Source: Paramecium tetraurelia | Lineage: Eukaryota | Assembly: GCA_000165425.1 (NCBI GenBank) | Contig: CT868085.1 | Span: 496,001-560,000 of the forward strand | Direction of reading: 5' to 3' | DNA length: 64,000 nucleotides | Shown here: positions 15,074-27,234 of the stretch, one piece after another | Position numbering within the stretch: the stretch's first letter is position 1 | How the letters are laid out: every line of letters begins with the position of its first letter | Program-made: the position numbers and the translations under genes | Notes under the pieces: generated by a model | The model's input: only the letters and a program-made list of their open reading frames with translations | Told to the model about the DNA's origin: nothing | Database searches by the model: none

Positions 15074-15279
15074 TTGTTCTTTGATTGTTATACTTATATA
15101 ATTATAATTAAAATATAATGGTAATAAAATAATATGAATGTAATCAAAACTAATTTTTATTTTTCAACTTTAATTATTGAAGTTTTCTTTGAACTAATCT
15201 ATTTATTATGGAAAGTATTCCATTTTGAAATCAATAACACAAACATTTAGTCCATTTGATAATTTATAATTATAATAAT

Positions 15280-16119
15280 ATGAGCAATAGATTAGTAGCT
15301 ATTGGGTAAAACTCTTTGATTCCAATTAAAGCAACTGGAAAATTGGGCGATGAGTTTTTTGATAAACCAGAATACGAACCAAATTAAATGGAATTGCTCA
15401 GAAAGAAAGAGAGGCATCAAGAATTGAGAGACAAGGGATATTTAGTTAAGGATAAACTGAATGAAGATGTTCCTGATGATATACCATTTTATGAGATTTT
15501 TGATCCTCCAAACGAAAACTACAGAAAGATCTTTTACCCACAAGATCTGAAATCATAAGTAGCTTACTATTATCATTCTCCACATTTTGAGAATAACGAA
15601 CAATTTTTAGTTGATGAAGAAGATATAGAGTAAGCAGAATAAGCAATTAAGTACTAAGAAGAAGCGAATAGAAGAAAAGAGTCAAAGCTACAAAGATTGA
15701 ATCAACAATTTAAAAAATAGAAAGAATTAGAAGCAGAAATAGAAAGAAGATAGAGATAAGATCAAGCAATTGAAAATGTCAAAAGGGAGAGAATTTTAAG
15801 TAAGCAACCAATTTCATCGCCTTCAAAAAATCAGCCAAAGAAGGTCAGTCCTCATTTACCATTTAAAAATTATGGTTTGGCAATAGTTGGACCAAAGGGC
15901 AAGATGTCAATGCAAAAGGATAATAAAATTAATAAAACGAATAAGATCGTTTAAAAACAGCAGTAAAAAACAGAGGAAGATAATGATAATTAAAAGAAAA
16001 AAACTGTAACTTTCGCTGAAGAAGACGAGGTGAAATACATACCTAAAAATTGGAAATCTTCATCTGAGGAGTTTAGGGAATTGATCAAGCAAAATAAAAA
16101 AAGCAAGAAGTTAAAATGA
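15280..16119 (+). CDS. Hypothetical charged protein with RVxF-type motif (279 aa)
   Basis: Intronless 280-codon ORF MSNRLVAIGQNSLIPIKATGKL...; central coiled coil; C-terminal KKKTVTFAEEDEVKYI. Confidence 0.75.
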
Positions 16120-16167
16120 ATATAGAAGTACTATTATTTTATTTATATTTTTATTGATCTATATATA

Positions 16168-19100
16168 ATGTCTGAGAGTGAAAATTTCAAATTAAGAAGA
16201 GAAATTATACAGCTCAAAAAATAGATTGAATAATTAAGAGAGGATGGTCGTTAAAAGGATTAAAGGATAGCATTCTTGGAAGCCGAATAAGAGTTCCATT
16301 AGGGGAGATATGAAGAATAGAAAGCAAAATATAATGAATTGCTTTATTAGAATGAGAGATTTAGAAAAGATGGTTAATAGGGATGATGCATATACAAAAG
16401 AGACCTTAAAGAATTAATTAGATAAAGCAAGGGATGAATTAGATAGAGAGAAGGCTGCTGTTCAATAATATATTGATTAATTGGAGAAGGTGAAACTTGA
16501 AAATGGTAATCTGATGTGGTAATTGACTTAATTGTCATTGAAATACAAGGATGAAAATATCGTAAAGGATGAATTCCATTACAGAGACGAGGTTTAGGAT
16601 AACAGAGAAAAATTGAAGAATTTAGTGGAGAAAACAAATGCTTTGAATTAGGCTATTGAGAGATTGAGTGCTGAAAACAGAGTATTGCGGAAAATGGCAG
16701 GAGTTCCAGATGATTATTAATTTGAATTGGATGATGTGATTTAAGAAGGGCAATTGTAAGTGGAGAAGTACAGAGCCCAAGTGATTGAATTGGAGAGAGA
16801 AGTGGAAGAATTGGAAGAAGAGAGAGCAAGGTTGAGAAGAAAATTGAGAGAATAAGTAGCTGGAGGTGAAGTGAATTTGGAAGAATTCGATTCTTAATCA
16901 AATAATCAATTGAGAAAGGAAAATTAGGAATTGAGAAGTAAAGTAAAGATGTTGGAGGAAGAAAATGCCCATATTCGTTAAAATTAATAAGATTATGGAG
17001 CTATGGGCATGGGCACATAATAAGGAATTATGAAAGTTACTAATGATTAGGTGTAAGAAATGATGTAGAAACAATAACAGGAATTAAGAGAACAACTTTA
17101 AGAGATAGTCAAGAACTATGAAAGGGTAAAACCTCTAAGACACTACATAAGTCAAATAATCAATTATATAATAAAGATAAGTTGTTGATACGGCTGGATT
17201 GGATAAATTAAGTATGCCTCCTAATCCCATTCCTGGAGCCTTTGGAAATTATAATGATATTAAGGATGGTTACAGTTAGCGCTTTAATGTTAAATTTCCG
17301 GTTGACATGTCTTCAGCATATGGGGATTCAGGCATGGATCAGATGTAATTGAAATACGAATTAGCATCATTGCAATTGTAGAACATAGAGACCTTGAGAT
17401 TATTATAATAGAAGGAAGCTGAGTATATGAATTTGTTATAAGAAGTTACTACTATTAAGGAAGATATAAAGGGAAAATGTTTGTTGGTCTAAGATCAGTT
17501 ATTTGTGAAATACATTGAAGAGAGAGACAAATTTAAGGTGATGTTTGGAGAGATCCAAGAGAAATACAAGGCTTAATTGGATTTGAATGCGGGAAAGCAA
17601 AGATTAAATTAGCTCATTATGAGGAATTTATGAGAGACAGAGAGAAGCCAAAGAAAGAAATGGAAGAAAAGTTAGGAGAGATGGCTAAGAAGACTGCTAT
17701 TTTAGATGTCAATTTGATCAAATTATCTCGAAAGTATGATGCATTGACTGAAGAATATAAATAAATGAAGACCAGTTATACAATAGTAGAGAGTGAGAGT
17801 ATGGCAAAGGAGAAGGAATTATTAGAGAAAATATATAATTTGATTTCATGGAAGAAATCAGCAGAAGAACATATGAGGGTTATGATTAAAGAGTTAAAGA
17901 ATTCAGTACCAGCTGATGAATTCAACAATCTTAGATAAAAGTTAGAATACACATAGGATAAATTGGCTAATGCCTAATTGAAAGAGGCAGAGTATTAAAA
18001 GAGAATGGCAACACTTGAGAGTCATGAGAGAGAAGCATTTGAAAAAGGAGAAAGAGTTAGGTAATTGGAAGAAGAATTAGTGGAAATTTAATTGGAAGAA
18101 GAAGTTATTAAGAAAAGACTGTAGAGTTTTGATTCTGCTTTTGACAAATATGTCAAGATTTATGAACATATTGTTGAGTTTATTAAGATTAAAAATATTT
18201 CAGTTATTGAAATATTTAAATTATTCGATGAGAATGGAGACAACAAGATTTCAAGAAGTGAATTCACCACAGCTATTAGTAATATTGGAGTTCCGGTGTC
18301 TAATGATGATATGGAAGTTGTATTCATGTTTGTAGATTTAGATGGAACTGGTTAAATAGAGTATTAAGAATTCATTAGAAAGCTCAAGAGATCAGGAATC
18401 AATCTTAGAAAACCTGAAGATTAATTACTTTATCAATTATATAATGCAATTAAGGAATCAGGTTACGATTTGAGATCTGCATTCCAAGCATTTGATACTA
18501 ATTGTGATAATGTTATTTCCAAGGCAGACATGAAAGAAGCACTTCTTTAGATGAATATTAAACATGATCAAAAGGCTATTGATTATATCTTTAGAATGGC
18601 TGACACCAGTGGAGATAATTAAATCAATTATGAAGAGTTCTATGTATTATTTGATGAAATTGTGAAAAGTGAATTAATCAATCAAGGAAAATCAATCTAA
18701 CTCAGCTTAGATATTAAGTATCAAATTATGTGTAAATTGGATCAATCAATTAAAGATTAGAGATTAACATTATTAGATGTGTTCAATATGATTGATAGAG
18801 ATGGAGATTAAACAATTACTTTTAATGGAATTTTAAGCTTTGTTTAGAGAATTAGAGGGAGGAATCTCACCTGATTTGGTTAGATAATTGTTTGATTAAA
18901 TGGATTAAGATCGAAATGGTCAAATTAGTTATAATGAAATGTTAAATTATTTGAGAACTGCAAAAACAGAAGAGGAAAAATATCAAAAGTTACAATTTAT
19001 ATAATAGAGAACTGAATAACTGAAAACTATGTAGGAGACCGATGTGACTCTCCAAAAGGCCAAATAAGAAAATTAAGGATAGACATTAGAGGATAGATTG

Positions 19101-21909
19101 AAAATGAAAATAAACATTTTGGAAATGAGGGAAAAAAATGCCTAATTAAAGTGTGATGTGCTACTCAATTAATTAACCAACACAGAATTGACACTTAAAG
19201 AGACAACTAAAACTTTATTTGAACTCCAAAATTAAATGGAGAGATCTAATGATACTTTCTATAGAGATAGAGAGGAGAAACTAATGTTGTTGGAAAAGTT
19301 AAAGGGAGCATTATCCAGAGAAGAAAGTGATAAATTGACTAAACAGATTGAATAACAGAGGTTAACCATTTCTGATTAAAACAGTGCAATTACAACTTAC
19401 AGGTAATTGTATGACACAGCAGTCATGTAAACTAAAAGTATGAAATTAACTATTGAAAAAATCAAAAATGATTCTGACACAATGTAATAAACGATAAAAG
19501 AACTGTAAGCAGTATCTGATTAGAATATGATGATTGGTAAATTGTATCATCATCTCATGATTGCCAGATGGCATGAAGCACAAACTAATCAGAAGTATGA
19601 AAAGGTTTTGGATGAGTTAAGAAAACTCAAATTACAATCTGAGTCATATGATACTACAATTCTTAAACAATCACAAGAAATTATTTAATAAAATACCATA
19701 TTCTCAGAGCAAATTAGATCATATGAACAATAAATTACTGAGCTCAAATTAAAAATATTGCCAACAGTCACTTTATAAAGAGTTGAAGAATAAGCAAAAA
19801 GAGTCAAAGAATTATCAGATATGAAATAGGAGGTTGAAAGATAAAATAGAGAATTGAGAGATAGGTTCTATGAATTACAACTTAAGGCAGACTATTTTGA
19901 TAATTACAAGGAGAAGTTAGATAATCTAGAGAGAAATTTAAGACAGAATAATCCTGATGAATTAAGTTAGTAAATTATAGCTGTAAGTTAAAAGTTATCA
20001 GAAGAAAAAATAGAATTGCTTAGAGTCAAAAGGGAAATGCAAGTGAGTGCTGAGAAACAAGAGTATTTTTAAAGATTAAATAAACAATACACTGACACAA
20101 TTAAGAAGTTAGAGTACGAATTAGCACATGCTGACTTGGATTTGAGGAAAAGGGAAGAAGATTGGAGGAAAAGGTTCTATGAATAAAGAAAAACCATTTT
20201 TGCCTAATTGGGACTCATTGAAAAAGATGATATGAAAGAATATACTTAGAAGAATACAGATGCAAGTAAGATGTTGATTGATGCAATTTAGAAAAAATAG
20301 AAAGAGCAAATGGAACAATAAAATTAACCTACTGAATAATAGTAAGTAGAAATCACATAATATTAGAAAAAAATCTAAGAACTAGAGGCTTCAGTAAAGA
20401 AGAAAAATATTGAAATTGAAGGATATATAGAAAGATAAAAGATTGTTACAAGTGGCACCATTGTATTTCAATAGTAATAATTGGAAGATTATACTAAGAC
20501 ATTATTAGCTTAAGAGGCTGAAAAGGTGTCTGTTGCTGGTTAATAAATGCTTAAGGCAATGCAAGAAATAATTCAGGATAAAGATAGGGAATTGGATAGA
20601 AAGGAATAATAGTTAGATGCTTTGAGGCAAGAGACGTTATTACATAAGAAAAAGGATATTGCAGAAATCTAAAGATTAACAGATCTATTGCATAGAAGAG
20701 ATTAAGTATAACAGGAAGCAAACAAAACAGGTAATAGCAATAATTACAATAATTTTTCATATTTGTAATAAAATTAAATGGCTGAATTGCAACCAGTTTT
20801 AATAGAAAAATATTAATAATAATTATAAGAAAAAGATAGAAAAATTAAAGATCTTGAATTATCATATGAAGCAGAGAAAAGTGCTTTAAAGAAAATGAAA
20901 GAGGAATTAATCAAAACTATTGCCATTAAAGAATAATTAGAAATAGAATTAGATAATGAAAAGAAATTGAATGAAAGCATGTAATATGTGTAAAAGATTG
21001 AAAAATTATAAAATTTAGTTAATGAAAAAAATAACTAATTGGTTACATTAAAGAAAACTGTAGTTGCTTTAAAGGAAGAATAATATAAGATAGCTGGAGA
21101 ATCTATAGACAAGGAGCAAATTTACAAAACTAAAGAATCTAAATTAAATAATAATTCAACAGAACTTGAAACCAGATTAACCAAAATGGTTAATGATATG
21201 AAATTACTAAAAGAGGAAATTAAAGATAAACAGAAAAAGTTAGAACAACTTCAAGAGAAGGAAATTTAACATAGAGCACAAATGACGGATTTACAAAAGA
21301 AAAACTCAGAACTCAAGGCTATCATCTAAGCTGGAGGTGGTAAATTAGAAGAATAAGATCAAACTGTTTCTAACATCCAAGCTAAACTTCAGTAATTTAA
21401 CTAAATATAGATGGAGAAAGTGCAATTGGAGAGAGAAATTCAATTTTTGAAGTAACAAGGAGGAACAAGAGAATTATTTGATAAAGATGCTACATTAAAG
21501 CCACCTACAGGTTTATATTTTAAAACATTCGCAGAGTTGTTGGATACTCTCAAATAATATCTGATAACAAAACCAAAATTTGATTTGCTATTTGAATTTA
21601 AGAAATTAGATAAGTAGTTTACATAAGTATTGCCAATGGGAAGGTTCTTTGAAGTATTATCTAGTGCTGGAGTAAAGTTGAAAACAAGGTATACTATACA
21701 TTAATAGTTTTAGAGATCAAAAATTAGTTATAGACACAATTAAGACAAAAGATGAAAATGCCGATTATTATACTAAATTTTATTATGTTTATAAGGGTTG
21801 GTCTGATAATGTAGTTTAAACTGATTAAGCTGATAAGTAGTAATAATAACAATAGCAATAAATATAATAATAGCAATCACAAAAATTTAGTGCAAAAAGC
21901 AAAAAATGA
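16168..21909 (+). CDS. CEP290: CEP290-like ciliary transition-zone protein with internal EF-hand cluster; four frameshifts in this sequence
   Basis: Ordered CEP290-like blocks: ENRVLRKMAGVP..EVEELEEERARLRRKLR; KKTAILDVNLIKLSRKY..EKIYNLISWK..NSVP; KINILEMREKNA; ELQAVSDQNMMIGKLYHHL. Six EF-hand loops at ~18228-18941. Frame breaks near 16344, 17125, 17593 and 18821; intron near 21690-21713. Confidence 0.8.
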
Positions 21910-21951
21910 AAAAAGATTTGATTGAAATAAAATAAATAATTAATTATTTAC

Positions 21952-23170
21952 TCAATTCATTTCTATAGATAAATTATATTTTTTATATTTACCAGATGAA
22001 ATTCTTGGTTTAGAAGTATTTGTACTGGATCTCCTTTTAATATTATAAATTTTTTACTGTTTTATATTTTACTAAGGCTTAATTTACATAGTTGGAGGTT
22101 GTTTTTATTAGAATTGTTGATGTTACTGGTTTTAATTCTTTTTAATTTGCTATTTTTTCATTTAGTTTAAATATTGGATAGTGCTTTAGGCTCTTACATC
22201 CATTCCAGTGTGGCATCTGGATTGATTTGTAACCGTAGTTTTATTTTTTTAGTGATTATTGGATAGCCTCGCTTTCATCTCTTCCAAGGGTTCAGTAGAA
22301 CATCGATTAGAATTTCTCTAATAGCTGGATAGAGAGGAGCGATTCAACAACTATTTTTTCTATAGTATTTATGCCACAGTTAAAGCTTATTACTATAAAT
22401 CCATAGTTTAACTATTAATATTAACATTAAGATTGATATGACTATTATTAACATTAAAGATATTATTGGTCTTGGATGGATTGCTCTTGCTTTTCTATTT
22501 CAATAAAATGGCTGCGAGAGTGGTTTTGCTAAGTGACTTTTTGGACTCAGTTGGAATGGACTTCTTCACAGAGGAGGTTTTGGTATCTATTTCAAAGGGT
22601 CTTTGATTTTTTTTACTTATACTTCCGTTGATAATGACTATTATAATGTGTTGTGCTGTTGGAATTGCTCTTTGCTCTGGAGGCCCCTTTTTATTCGCAT
22701 TTTTTCTTAACAAAATCTTTGCAATTTATTGTATGCAACTTCCTTTCTAAGTCGTTTAAGATGGTTCTATATGTTTATTATGTAGCTGGATGTTTGGCCT
22801 TTTTAGGTTGAGGAGGCTTTAATTTTTATTAATAAGGTTTTGGCTATAATACAACTGCATCGTCTGATAAATGTTCAGATGAACTATTAAAATTAAAATT
22901 TAGATCTAATTGATCTTCTGATTTTTCATTTCCTTCTGTTTTTAAACGATGGGGAGATTCAATTGTTTAATATTTTTCAGGTGTTTCTTCAAAAGGCATT
23001 CGAGGAAACACATAATCCTATTTTGATTATCTAAATTTGAATTCGATCTCTTCTCTCTATTAACATCTATTTGAATATAATGGTTGGCAAACTTGCATAA
23101 AGTAATCATCTGTTCTATTCGAAGAATCGCAATTAAATTTATCAGTCATTTGTGAATATATATCATCCAT
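21952..23170 (-). CDS. Hypothetical low-complexity Q/S/K-rich protein
   Basis: ATG 23170 MDDIYSQMTDKFNCDSSNR..., long open Gln-rich frame ending near SKPRISS...TGA; exon structure uncertain. Confidence 0.55.
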
Positions 23171-24549: not shown

Positions 24550-27234
24550 ATGAATACAAATAGAACAGATAATGGTTTATTGCAGGACTGTTATTTTGGC
24601 CCTTGTGTTTTGGTTGATTCTACTAATGTGAACAATTATAAAAAAAATTCACCTTCTAGGAATTCAATCTCATCAGATTTTAGTTAAAAAGATATTGAGT
24701 AGTAATCAAATAATATTTCTCGGAATGTAGAAATGTTGCCCATAACTCTGCAAGTGTTGAAGGCCAAATAAAACTTTAGATCTAAGGGGAATCCTAACCA
24801 ATAATCATAAAGCAACTTCATTAAAGGAAGCAAGAGACAATTGCTGGAACCTAAAAATTAAAAATCAGAAGGACCCTCCTTCTTAAAAACTTATATTACA
24901 AATAGCATCATAAATAAATTTAAAAATAACCTATACTTGTCATCGTATGTCCTCCCATATTACATGAAATATATTTTGGATAATGAAAATTACCTATAGG
25001 AGTAAAAGGAAAAAACTAAACTAAATTCAAACAAACAAGAGAGAAGGTATTGAAATTATATTTTAAGTCAGTAAAGAAAATGGCCAAACAAACAAAATGT
25101 TGAAATTAAGTCATTTACTTATGCCTGGGAAAAATCTAACAATTTTATGGGATTTCATATCCTTATTTGTTCTGTTTCTTAGACTATTTTTTTGCACCAT
25201 GATTGCATCCTTTGGATAATCGGATAATTTTTTTAAAGGCTGTGAACTTTTCTTTAATATATATATACTATTTGAGACTTTATTGACAATTTGTAGACCT
25301 GTAATTCTCTAAGGAGAAATTGTAAGTGAGCTTGAATAAATTTGGATTCTCTATTTGAAACATTAAATGTTAGAAGATTTATCCAGTTTTGTTATTTGGT
25401 TTATGATTTATTTTGGTTTAAATTAAGTGATAGTTCTTAATGAAATTTTTGCCATTACACAATTTGTCATAACTGTTAGATAAATAGCAAGAAAATATAA
25501 TATTCAAATCGAATAATTGTATTTAAAAGGATTTAATAGTGATTTTCTAGATTTGATTAGTCTGTTTATCATTATATGTTTTTTTGCTCACACAATGGCT
25601 TGTTTATGGTATTATATAGGCCATATCACTTTGAATCAAGGTTCTTGGTTAACATACTATGAAACAACCAATGAAAATATTTGGGCTAAATATAACCTCT
25701 CTTACTATTGGGCGACTATGACCATGGTTACTGTTGGATATGGAGATATTACACCTAAAAATCAGGTAGAGGTTGCATTCGTATCCATAGTGATGATATC
25801 ATCCAGTTGTATGTTTGCTTACTCAATGAACTCTATAGGAGTGATAGTGAAAACTATTTATGATGAAAAAACAAGATTTAAGTATTCATTTATTGAAACT
25901 TCCCTAGGAGAACGTTAATTTTGATGAATCAATTCATGTCTAAAAACGAAGTAGATTCTTAAATCCAAAGCAGAGTGAAGAACTATATTAAATTTAGTAT
26001 TGAAAATGAAGTCTTAGAAAACAAAGAGGAAACTACTAAAATAATAAATGATTTACCAGTTGGTTTAAGAAAAGAATTAGAATCGGACATTTAATAGAAA
26101 GTTATTTAAAAAATAAAGGTGATAACAGATTATTTTTCAATACAAACTTAAAATAAAGTTAAAAACAATTTATGTCTAGTCAAATTCACTCCTAAAGATA
26201 TAATATACCACAGAGATGATATGAAAGATAAAAATTTGTATATATTCAAATAGTTATGTAGATATTTCATTTCTGAAGGGGAAGTCTAAATCTTCGAAGA
26301 GCAAAGTCAAAAGGTGATCAGGAGATTAAAAGCTGGGGATGTTTTCGGAGAATTTTAATTTTTTACAGGGCAGACTCCTAAAGAATCTACAATAAGTGTA
26401 GGATTTACATAATTATATAGGATAGATAGGGAGAAATTTATAAATATCATAAAACAAACGCAAAAAGATTATGAAAAATTTCATAAAATCAAAGATTCTA
26501 TTTTATATTCTAAAAATTATACCAGCATTCTATCTAAATGTTATATATGCAATAAATATACACATAGAGATATAGAATGCCCTTATTTAACATATTAACC
26601 TTCTAAATATCTAAAGATTTTGAAATTTAACAAGTCTGAACATAACGAAAGACAAAAATACACCAGAAACAATAGAAAAAAGAGCAAAGCATAACTTGAT
26701 CAATAATAGATTGAAGCAACTATACGAGACTATTAAGAATTCTTAACAGAATCAATGTTAAATGACCTCAATGATCAAGTGTTAACATATTAAGTATCAG
26801 ACACTATTAGTGGTCAAATTGAAACAATTCCTATAGATGAATTCAGATAGAAATCTTCAAATTCTATTAATAAGAATATTCAGCAAACTGGTTTAAATAG
26901 AAGAGAATCATAAACACCCAATCTGGACTTAGATAAGAAAAAGTCAGTTGTTTTAATTAAGTAAAAGGTATCTTTAACAGAAGAGGAAAAAAGAAAAACA
27001 CAAATTTATAGGGAAACTTTAATTTTTAAATAGTTAGACCAATTCTAAGTGAAATAACAGTTCTATATGTTGGAAGGCATGGATAAAATGCAGAATTATA
27101 TAGATTATTTACCACATAATAATGCTAATATAGTTATCAGAAATGCAAACAAAGAAAAGCCAAGGACTAAATCTATTAAGCCTTAGGTCTTTAAATTTTC
27201 GAATAATAGTTTTAGAATTGCTAAAAATATATGA
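24550..27234 (+). CDS. K+ channel of the cyclic-nucleotide-binding-domain (EAG/HCN/CNG-like) ciliate family
   Basis: TM segments, HTMACLWYYIG (S5), pore YWATMTMVTVGYGDITP, C-linker, CNBD (YFISEGEV..LKAGDVFGEFQFFTG), then CYICNKYTHRDIECP; several tiny introns. Confidence 0.93.

Follow-up and report, generated by a model that had tools for sequence, protein, structure and literature searches.

In Paramecium tetraurelia, CEP290 tagged with green fluorescent protein (GFP) was reported to locate to the transition zone of ciliated basal bodies, and two nearly identical CEP290 paralogues were described (PMC7093003). The gene analysed here is one of these two published ohnologues. It lies in a stretch of 64,000 nucleotides of the P. 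tetraurelia reference sequence (GenBank assembly GCA_000165425.1, contig CT868085.1, forward-strand positions 496,001 to 560,000; hereafter the window, whose first letter is position 1 of all coordinates below), and its coding frame contains a block of six EF-hands. An open full-text literature search, with figures and subscription journals outside its scope, returned no description of EF-hands in any CEP290.

Several described systems stand close to this arrangement. In animals, NPHP5 (IQCB1) has calmodulin-binding and Cep290-binding domains (PMC5446187; PMC10297203), and in the CEP290-NPHP5-calmodulin assembly a calmodulin-type Ca2+ sensor with four EF-hands is attached to CEP290 in trans via the NPHP5 adaptor, whereas in ciliates the EF-hands lie in cis within the CEP290 chain and include a third pair. 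NPHP5 is tabulated as absent from Paramecium (PMC7093003, Table 1). [quoted passage not shown] Lineage-specific EF-hands also occur on the transition-zone proteins NPHP1 and NPHP4 of some eukaryotes, where Zhang and Aravind (2012, PMC3495828) read them as suggesting a response to Ca2+; these are other host proteins, and in the entries of that paper that concern it CEP290 appears only as 'CC (coiled coil)'. The EF-hand passages of PMC7093003 (four places) all concern RPGRIP1L and leave CEP290 unmentioned, and the EF-hand passages of PMC8535419 concern centrin only. Database labels of the orthologues already read 'EF-hand domain-containing protein'. The EF domains themselves are thus already annotated, and what appears undescribed is the identity of the protein as CEP290, the internal insertion of the module and its conservation across ciliates.

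The six-EF-hand module and its host protein

The coding parts of the corrected gene are given below, numbered in amino acids (aa) of the corrected protein, with the evidence for each part in brackets.

16168..18124, + strand: N-terminal CEP290 coiled-coil part, aa 1-651 (hhalign to animal columns from 304, high confidence)
18143..18962, + strand: six-EF-hand module, aa 658-930 (Pfam, loop ligands, calmodulin alignment, AlphaFold2, Foldseek)
18227-18262, + strand: EF1 loop DENGDNKISRSE, aa 686-697
18335-18370, + strand: EF2 loop DLDGTGQIEYQE, aa 722-733
18494-18529, + strand: EF3 loop DTNCDNVISKAD, aa 775-786
18602-18637, + strand: EF4 loop DTSGDNQINYEE, aa 811-822
18794-18830, + strand: EF5 loop DRDGDQTITLME, aa 875-886, after dropping base 18820
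18903-18938, + strand: EF6 loop DQDRNGQISYNE, aa 911-922
18963..21686, + strand: C-terminal coiled-coil part of CEP290 as far as the intron, aa 931-1838 (phmmer relatives with CEP209_CC5; hhalign collinear)
21471..21801, + strand: degenerate EF-hand-like domain at the C-terminus, across the intron, aa 1767-1863 (family consensus D....G.I....F...L...G)

A reading made earlier from the sequence alone had placed six EF-hand loops between two CEP290-like blocks. All are present, the loops at 18227-18938 and the blocks on either side at 17900-17923 and 19107-19142. The upstream block, NSVPADEF, belongs to the N-terminal part, which also includes a conserved ENRVLRKMAGVPDDY / ELEEERARL stretch; the C-terminal part holds KINILEMREKNA (19107-19142) and a SDQNMMIGKLYHHLM...W..A.TN.KY block. 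In the raw window EF5 is read in frame 2 as DRDGDQTITFNGILSF... and runs into a stop at 18872-18874. The fifth loop as it had been read, ending in TITLMEF, needs base 18820 to be dropped, and this is justified, since that base is absent from every public contig that covers the position. The six-EF block is an integral, in-frame part of CEP290, about 270 residues long and made up of three EF-hand pairs.

By Pfam, the window piece 17519-18871 matched EF-hand_7 at E 9.1e-29 and the next piece, which holds EF6, matched EF-hand_6 at 5.2e-6; the orthologue of P. primaurelia (P0001, 1904 aa) matched EF-hand_7 at E 1.3e-33, and EF-hand_6 and EF-hand_1 each marked six separate stretches in it. Six matches to an EF-loop pattern occur in the protein; shuffled versions (n=2000) averaged 0.25 matches and peaked at 4, none of them reaching six. 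In all six loops, oxygen ligands stand at positions 1, 3 and 5, position 8 is hydrophobic and position 12 is acidic (Asp in EF3, Glu in the other five). At position 6, EF2 and EF6 have Gly, EF5 has Gln, and EF1, EF3 and EF4 have Asn. Because all six loops retain the canonical ligand positions, the module is predicted to bind Ca2+. EF1 to EF4 match calmodulin from one end to the other (query 28-175, calmodulin 13-144, E about 1e-16, best 1.7e-22). The module differs from calmodulin in lying inside a chain of 1903 aa, in having six EF-hands and in sharing 27-30% identity with it, and is not a calmodulin orthologue.

Structure prediction of the insert, proposed beforehand as a check, was run in AlphaFold2 on residues 645-960 of the P. 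primaurelia protein with 20 aligned relatives. The model (mean predicted local distance difference test score 81) contains three pairs of helix-loop-helix units, six in all, whose loops include short strands; long helices enter and leave it, and a disordered linker (model residues 194-198) parts EF pairs 2 and 3. Foldseek returned calmodulin as the top fold class, at 27-30% identity, together with multi-EF-hand proteins of ciliary doublet microtubules. A search of the ESM Atlas with the part of the P. primaurelia protein that follows the EF-hands gave no usable lead (best named cluster 0.88, a 2041-aa EF-hand cluster; others coiled-coil fragments at 0.82-0.83). The degenerate EF-hand-like domain near the C-terminus had no Pfam match in the scan of the P. 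primaurelia protein; the equivalent region of the Protocruzia protein (P0142) matched EF-hand_11 at 1792-1849 and DUF5580_M at 2152-2215.

The host had been named as a CEP290 homologue, and homology searches bear the name out. A first search with a 987-aa piece found two proteins, and animal proteins were reached via a profile search. The profile (A1) was built from 11 full-length EF-bearing relatives and scored against 7998 candidates (threshold E<=1e-3). It found 61 proteins, of which 43 carry Pfam PF16574 (CEP209_CC5), nine are of the EF-bearing ciliate type and nine are others; most of the 43 have the name 'centrosomal protein of 290 kDa', and the best non-ciliate match is an animal CEP290, at E 2.0e-68. 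When A1 was aligned by hhalign to an alignment of eight non-ciliate CEP290 proteins (A2: mammal, frog, amphioxus, hemichordate, snail, rotifer, one unnamed record and chytrid), the two were collinear over 1664 aligned columns (probability 100%, E 5.8e-66), spanning template columns 304-2080; the CEP209_CC5 domain occupies residues 1283-1410 of the CEP290 of Jaculus jaculus (P0163, 2472 aa). Both flanking blocks are CEP290 blocks in this alignment. The ciliate and animal proteins share a collinear coiled-coil rod, the blocks ENxxLRxxxG..., NSV(P/S), (I/L)xxLEM(R/K)E and SDxxxLIxKL, and a role at the transition zone (PMC7093003). They differ at the N-terminus, where animals have about 300 additional residues and the ciliate protein begins opposite animal column ~304. 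On this profile evidence the host protein is an orthologue of CEP290 (NPHP6).

Speaking against that assignment, PF16574, the sole Pfam model for CEP290, had no match in the P. primaurelia or Pseudocohnilembus protein (P0001, P0002) at E<=1 or in the window pieces at E<=0.01, while it scored 174.5 bits in the Jaculus protein. A phmmer search with the piece after the EF-hands (18960-21686) against 1.84 billion representatives gave 139 relatives. Among the 29 longer ones that were scanned, eight had CEP209_CC5 at E<=0.001, four of them above the curated cut-off (P0009, P0015, P0019 and P0057), and P0019 has six EF-hands and then CEP209_CC5, in collinear order. From the sequences of these relatives, the missing match in Paramecium reads as a limit of model sensitivity and not as an absence of the region. 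Three relatives, P0009 (1178 aa), P0010 (1178 aa) and P0015 (1205 aa), start just before the post-EF block (query 45-55 against protein 2-16); P0009 and P0015 have CEP209_CC5 without EF-hands and P0010 has no Pfam match. Split genes, starts at alternative sites or incomplete records could account for them.

The animal linker between the two blocks had been given as much shorter and free of EF-hands, and this holds. By hhalign, ciliate residues ~637-977 (P. primaurelia numbering) are without animal counterpart apart from about 40 low-confidence columns. These correspond to Jaculus residues 1009-1049, between ...NSV(S/P)... and ...ITMLEMKE..., and stand opposite about 340 ciliate residues. A scan of 11 CEP290-like proteins from outside the ciliates gave no match to any EF-hand family at E<=0.001. 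At the equivalent place in ciliates, EF-hand matches were found in Blepharisma stoltei (665-912) and Protocruzia (700-915), and Pfam also finds the module in Paramecium and Pseudocohnilembus. In the NCBI taxonomy Blepharisma belongs to Postciliodesmatophora and the other three to Intramacronucleata; the four module-bearing genera span both ciliate subphyla, and on their sequences the module therefore dates to early ciliate evolution.

Canonical loops number six of six in Paramecium and Pseudocohnilembus and five of six in four further relatives. Between the window protein and that of P. primaurelia the identity is 95.6% in the module and 94.8% and 91.9% in the coiled-coil flanks, and a diverged copy of the gene seen in public contigs (runs X18 and X20) differs in 16 codons within 18278-18406, 13 of them by synonymous changes. 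As judged by these comparisons the EF module is under purifying selection. The 2011 Ichthyophthirius genome paper, in the part that concerns it, gives MKS4/Cep290 as absent from Tetrahymena and Ichthyophthirius (PMC3341644). If that absence is true, CEP290 and its EF module were lost in that branch of Oligohymenophorea, whose ciliates still deciliate. A search for a Tetrahymena orthologue with the Pseudocohnilembus protein gave five matches, none of them named Tetrahymena; it also missed Paramecium and is silent on Tetrahymena. One further relative, P0014 (1896 aa, EukProt transcript), has a single EF-hand pair (75-137) upstream of the post-EF CEP290 part and, directly after it, an IQ calmodulin-binding motif (144-162) that only just passes its threshold (20.4 bits; cut-off 20.3). 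This sequence hints that calmodulin-type interactions may cluster at the CEP290 junction.

Frame corrections, transcript and gene copies

Long open reading frames (ORFs) appear in the window only with TAA and TAG read as Gln, and its G+C content is 27.8%, pointing to ciliate DNA. In the raw window the frame of the gene switches four times (1 to 2, 2 to 0, 0 to 2 and 2 to 0, near 16337, 17113, 17590 and 18820). Contigs from four public sequencing runs were placed on 15200-22000: X2 (DNA), X17 and X18 (RNA by guess) and X20; the evidence on the extra bases comes from three of these (X2, X17 and X18), which belong to three studies. Depths below are contig depth lacking the base or intron over total depth.

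16168..21909, + strand: whole CEP290 gene, ATG at 16168, TGA at 21907-21909, 1903 aa after corrections
16337, + strand: extra base, frame 1 to 2; absent in X2 (75.7/75.7), X17 (25/25) and X18 (17.7/17.7)
17113..17114, + strand: one extra base, frame 2 to 0; missing in all depth of X2, X17 and X18
17590..17594, + strand: two extra bases, frame 0 to 2; absent from every contig of X2, X17 and X18 over the site
18820, + strand: extra T within EF-hand 5, frame 2 to 0; absent in all covering contigs, X2 (82.4/82.4), X17 (15.3/15.3) and X18 (17.8/17.8)
21687..21711, + strand: 25-nt intron (GTATAC...TTTTAG); spliced out in X17 (11.3/11.3), X18 (10.7/10.7) and X20 (13.4/13.4), kept in DNA

The corrected gene was obtained by dropping five extra bases and the 25-nt intron from the window sequence. 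Its translation is free of stops through 1903 codons, to the TGA at 21907-21909, and the resulting protein is 93.5% identical to that of P. primaurelia over 1873 aa with no gaps. The base at 17113 or 17114 is missing in both contig types, that of the window copy and that of a close paralogue; the two-base omission appears either as 17593-17594 or as 17590 plus 17594 in contigs of X2, X17 and X18; and X20 does not cover 18820. Apart from these positions the covering contigs have no other letters against the window over stretches of up to 2743 bases. Because the contigs otherwise match it without substitutions, the five frame-shifting bases have the appearance of mistakes in the P. tetraurelia reference sequence and not of differences between strains. 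The segment 21687-21711 is a real intron, since it is omitted in X17, X18 and X20 yet kept in the DNA run X2, where none of a depth of 67 lacks it; its removal restores colinearity with the C-terminus of the P. primaurelia protein.

For P. tetraurelia the public record at this locus is P0152 (874 aa, 'unnamed protein product (macronuclear)'), a deposited protein whose alignment to the window falls into four blocks at 99-100% identity. It crosses three of the frame changes by means of model introns at 16372-16399 (28 nt), 17150-17180 (31 nt) and 17499-17518 (20 nt); its last block is 17519-18871, and it terminates at the stop at 18872-18874, which is caused by the extra base within EF-hand 5. 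The window is the P. tetraurelia reference sequence, and this protein is a shortened artefact and a partly wrong model of it; the reference errors and the 874-aa model together conceal the CEP290 identity and the complete EF module at this locus. The frame changes were also considered as tiny introns and this was rejected: contigs of the runs that show splicing are unspliced across 16144-16519 and 16987-17363 and lack single bases instead, and the P. primaurelia protein is collinear without the three introns of the deposited model. An ORF upstream (15283-16119) was likewise rejected as an N-terminal extension, as it has an in-frame TGA at 16117-16119 and the P. primaurelia protein begins with the same MSESENF as the corrected gene.

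The separate EF-hand transcript that would undo this architecture finds little support. A contig cannot prove a transcript; some stretches of the gene have no RNA contig among those listed, the breaks fall at the same places as in the DNA run, and no conclusion is drawn from the gaps. The corrected frame contains no stop and no intergenic stretch, and two orthologues, P0012 (MMETSP, 'type:complete', 2209 aa) and the Protocruzia protein P0142 (2685 aa), are transcriptome-derived single ORFs holding the N-terminal part, six EF-hands and the C-terminal part; these sequences argue for one mRNA carrying all three.

The link to the published gene was traced through its primers. The supplement of Gogendeau et al. 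2020 (PMC7093003) contains a primer table for 'CEP290-GFP / PTET.51.1.G0130345' and the RNAi vector, and of four published CEP290 primers that were tested, two agree with the window letter for letter, at 16168-16206 (the CEP290-GFP forward primer) and at 16999-17016. Neither the internal primer nor the C-terminal reverse primer has a match in the window within 3 mismatches. Public contigs reveal a second copy that has diverged from the window gene by about 8-9%, and because those two primers do not match, the GFP-tagged gene is probably the other, near-identical ohnologue and not the window copy. At 20753-20805 one contig (X2 DNA, X20) omits 51 bases and shows 11 other letters, which is probably paralogue length variation in an Asn/Gln-rich coiled-coil stretch.

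The upstream ORF 15283-16119 (+ strand) is a gene of its own; its product (about 278 aa) is rich in Lys and Gln and has no Pfam match. Roughly 50 bases separate its end from the ATG of CEP290, and it is covered over 15279-16089 by an RNA-like contig. Downstream, the gene at 24968-27234 (+ strand) encodes an Ion_trans_2 pore (E 2.9e-9) and, after it, a domain that binds cyclic nucleotides (E 4.6e-12), and by these domains looks like a K+ channel of the cyclic-nucleotide-gated or cyclic-nucleotide-regulated type.

Possible roles of the module

Ciliary shedding is driven by Ca2+ and takes place just distal to the transition zone, and depletion of CEP290, RPGRIP1L or NPHP4 in Paramecium was reported to give resistance to deciliation by Ca2+ and ethanol; the same depleted cells became bald with dibucaine and more than 80% deciliated after permeabilisation with Triton, and the authors attribute the resistance to faulty Ca2+ influx and not to sensing or severing (PMC7093003). 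The RNAi was partial, with mRNA reduced by at least 40% (PMC7093003).

We lean towards the reading that the module works in cis as a calmodulin-like unit for regulation or docking, placed where the CEP290 rod has a natural hinge. Ca2+ would bind to the six-loop module and alter its conformation or its binding of a partner helix, and the altered conformation or binding would in turn tune transition-zone architecture or gating. The ciliate module may then be a cis equivalent of the NPHP5-bound calmodulin on animal CEP290; by analogy of the two arrangements the module and the animal NPHP5-calmodulin arm may be functionally equivalent. Several results weigh against this reading of the locus. Besides the missing PF16574 match, none of the RNA contigs listed spans the N-terminal block, the six EF-hands and the C-terminal block together. 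The predicted template modelling score of the AlphaFold2 model is 0.46, so that the mutual arrangement of the three lobes is undefined. The divergent relatives P0145, P0047 and P0046 have one canonical loop of six each. Paramecium RPGRIP1L could lose its extra C-terminal EF-hands without harm to the deciliation signal, the single assay used (PMC7093003). The idea of a replacement for NPHP5 has co-occurrence as its sole basis, and the NPHP5-binding interval on CEP290 was not found in the full-text literature search.

The main rival, which we regard as rather unlikely, takes the EF pairs as a Ca2+-independent structural or docking domain, a rigid spacer or constitutive protein-binding unit within the rod. 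On this view physiological changes in Ca2+ would leave CEP290 unregulated. Calmodulin-like domains occur in other rod proteins. The ligand set is not universally kept, and a Ca2+-independent role is possible, because the three divergent relatives retain the module with mostly degenerate loops; position 12 of EF3 is Asp and not Glu, the C-terminal EF-like domain of the same Paramecium protein is already degenerate, and the dispensable EF-hands of RPGRIP1L point the same way. Such a domain is hard to reconcile, in the absence of selection for metal binding, with canonical ligands in all six loops of Paramecium and Pseudocohnilembus and in five of six in four relatives over very deep divergence, and the loops are conserved as strongly as the rest of the module. 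That the architecture is itself an artefact (misassembly, two genes fused into one, an EF-hand transcript of its own, or a decaying pseudogene whose frameshifts are real) we hold to be extremely improbable: the four frame changes in the raw gene, the deposited model of only 874 aa and the want of an RNA contig joining all parts would fit it, but the frame changes are missing from every covering contig of three runs in three studies with no other letters in the matching stretches, the corrected frame is open for 1903 codons, and the order of N-terminal CEP290, six EF-hands and C-terminal CEP290 recurs in full-length proteins of four named ciliates, two of the proteins being transcriptome-derived ORFs (P0012 and P0142).

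The sequence-only reading had gone further and proposed a Ca2+ sensor that could link Ca2+ directly to gating or shedding of cilia. In its strong form, in which the module directly triggers shedding at the transition zone, this is distinctly improbable. The resistance of CEP290-depleted cells to Ca2+ and ethanol, the Ca2+ dependence and site of shedding, and the calmodulin-like nature of the module are all in its favour, but balding with dibucaine and deciliation after Triton indicate that sensing and severing work with little CEP290, within the limits of a partial RNAi, and Tetrahymena is a classic system for deciliation by dibucaine and yet is reported to lack CEP290 (PMC3341644), an absence unconfirmed here. 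The module is probably not a Ca2+ sensor triggering axonemal severing, because CEP290-depleted paramecia still shed their cilia once Ca2+ is let in; the proposed link to shedding is weakened accordingly. The structural part of the proposal stands, and its functional part is plausible in a weaker form, with a possible role in gating or in some other Ca2+-dependent activity of the transition zone.

A wider version of the cis-acting reading makes the ciliate transition zone a Ca2+-operated gate, in which a switch in CEP290 would replace the NPHP5-calmodulin arm in cis and act redundantly with the EF-hands of RPGRIP1L; we consider it unlikely. Such redundancy would explain the null effect of deleting the RPGRIP1L EF-hands alone. 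If this version were true, Ca2+ entering during ciliary reversal or stress would reshape the Y-link scaffold, and the reshaped scaffold would control the retention of channels, entry into and exit from the cilium, or the threshold for shedding.

No scaffold of the transition zone or of the ciliopathies has been studied more than CEP290, and the action of Ca2+ at the base of the cilium, in deciliation as well as in gating, is a standing question. In Paramecium, depletion of CEP290 already yields a Ca2+-related phenotype, and a design of EF-hand deletion and rescue has already been used for the neighbouring RPGRIP1L. A conserved six-EF module in CEP290 therefore offers a concrete and immediately testable handle on Ca2+ and the ciliary gate, and the comparison suggests an evolutionary parallel, with a calmodulin-type sensor carried on CEP290 in cis in ciliates and in trans via NPHP5 in animals.

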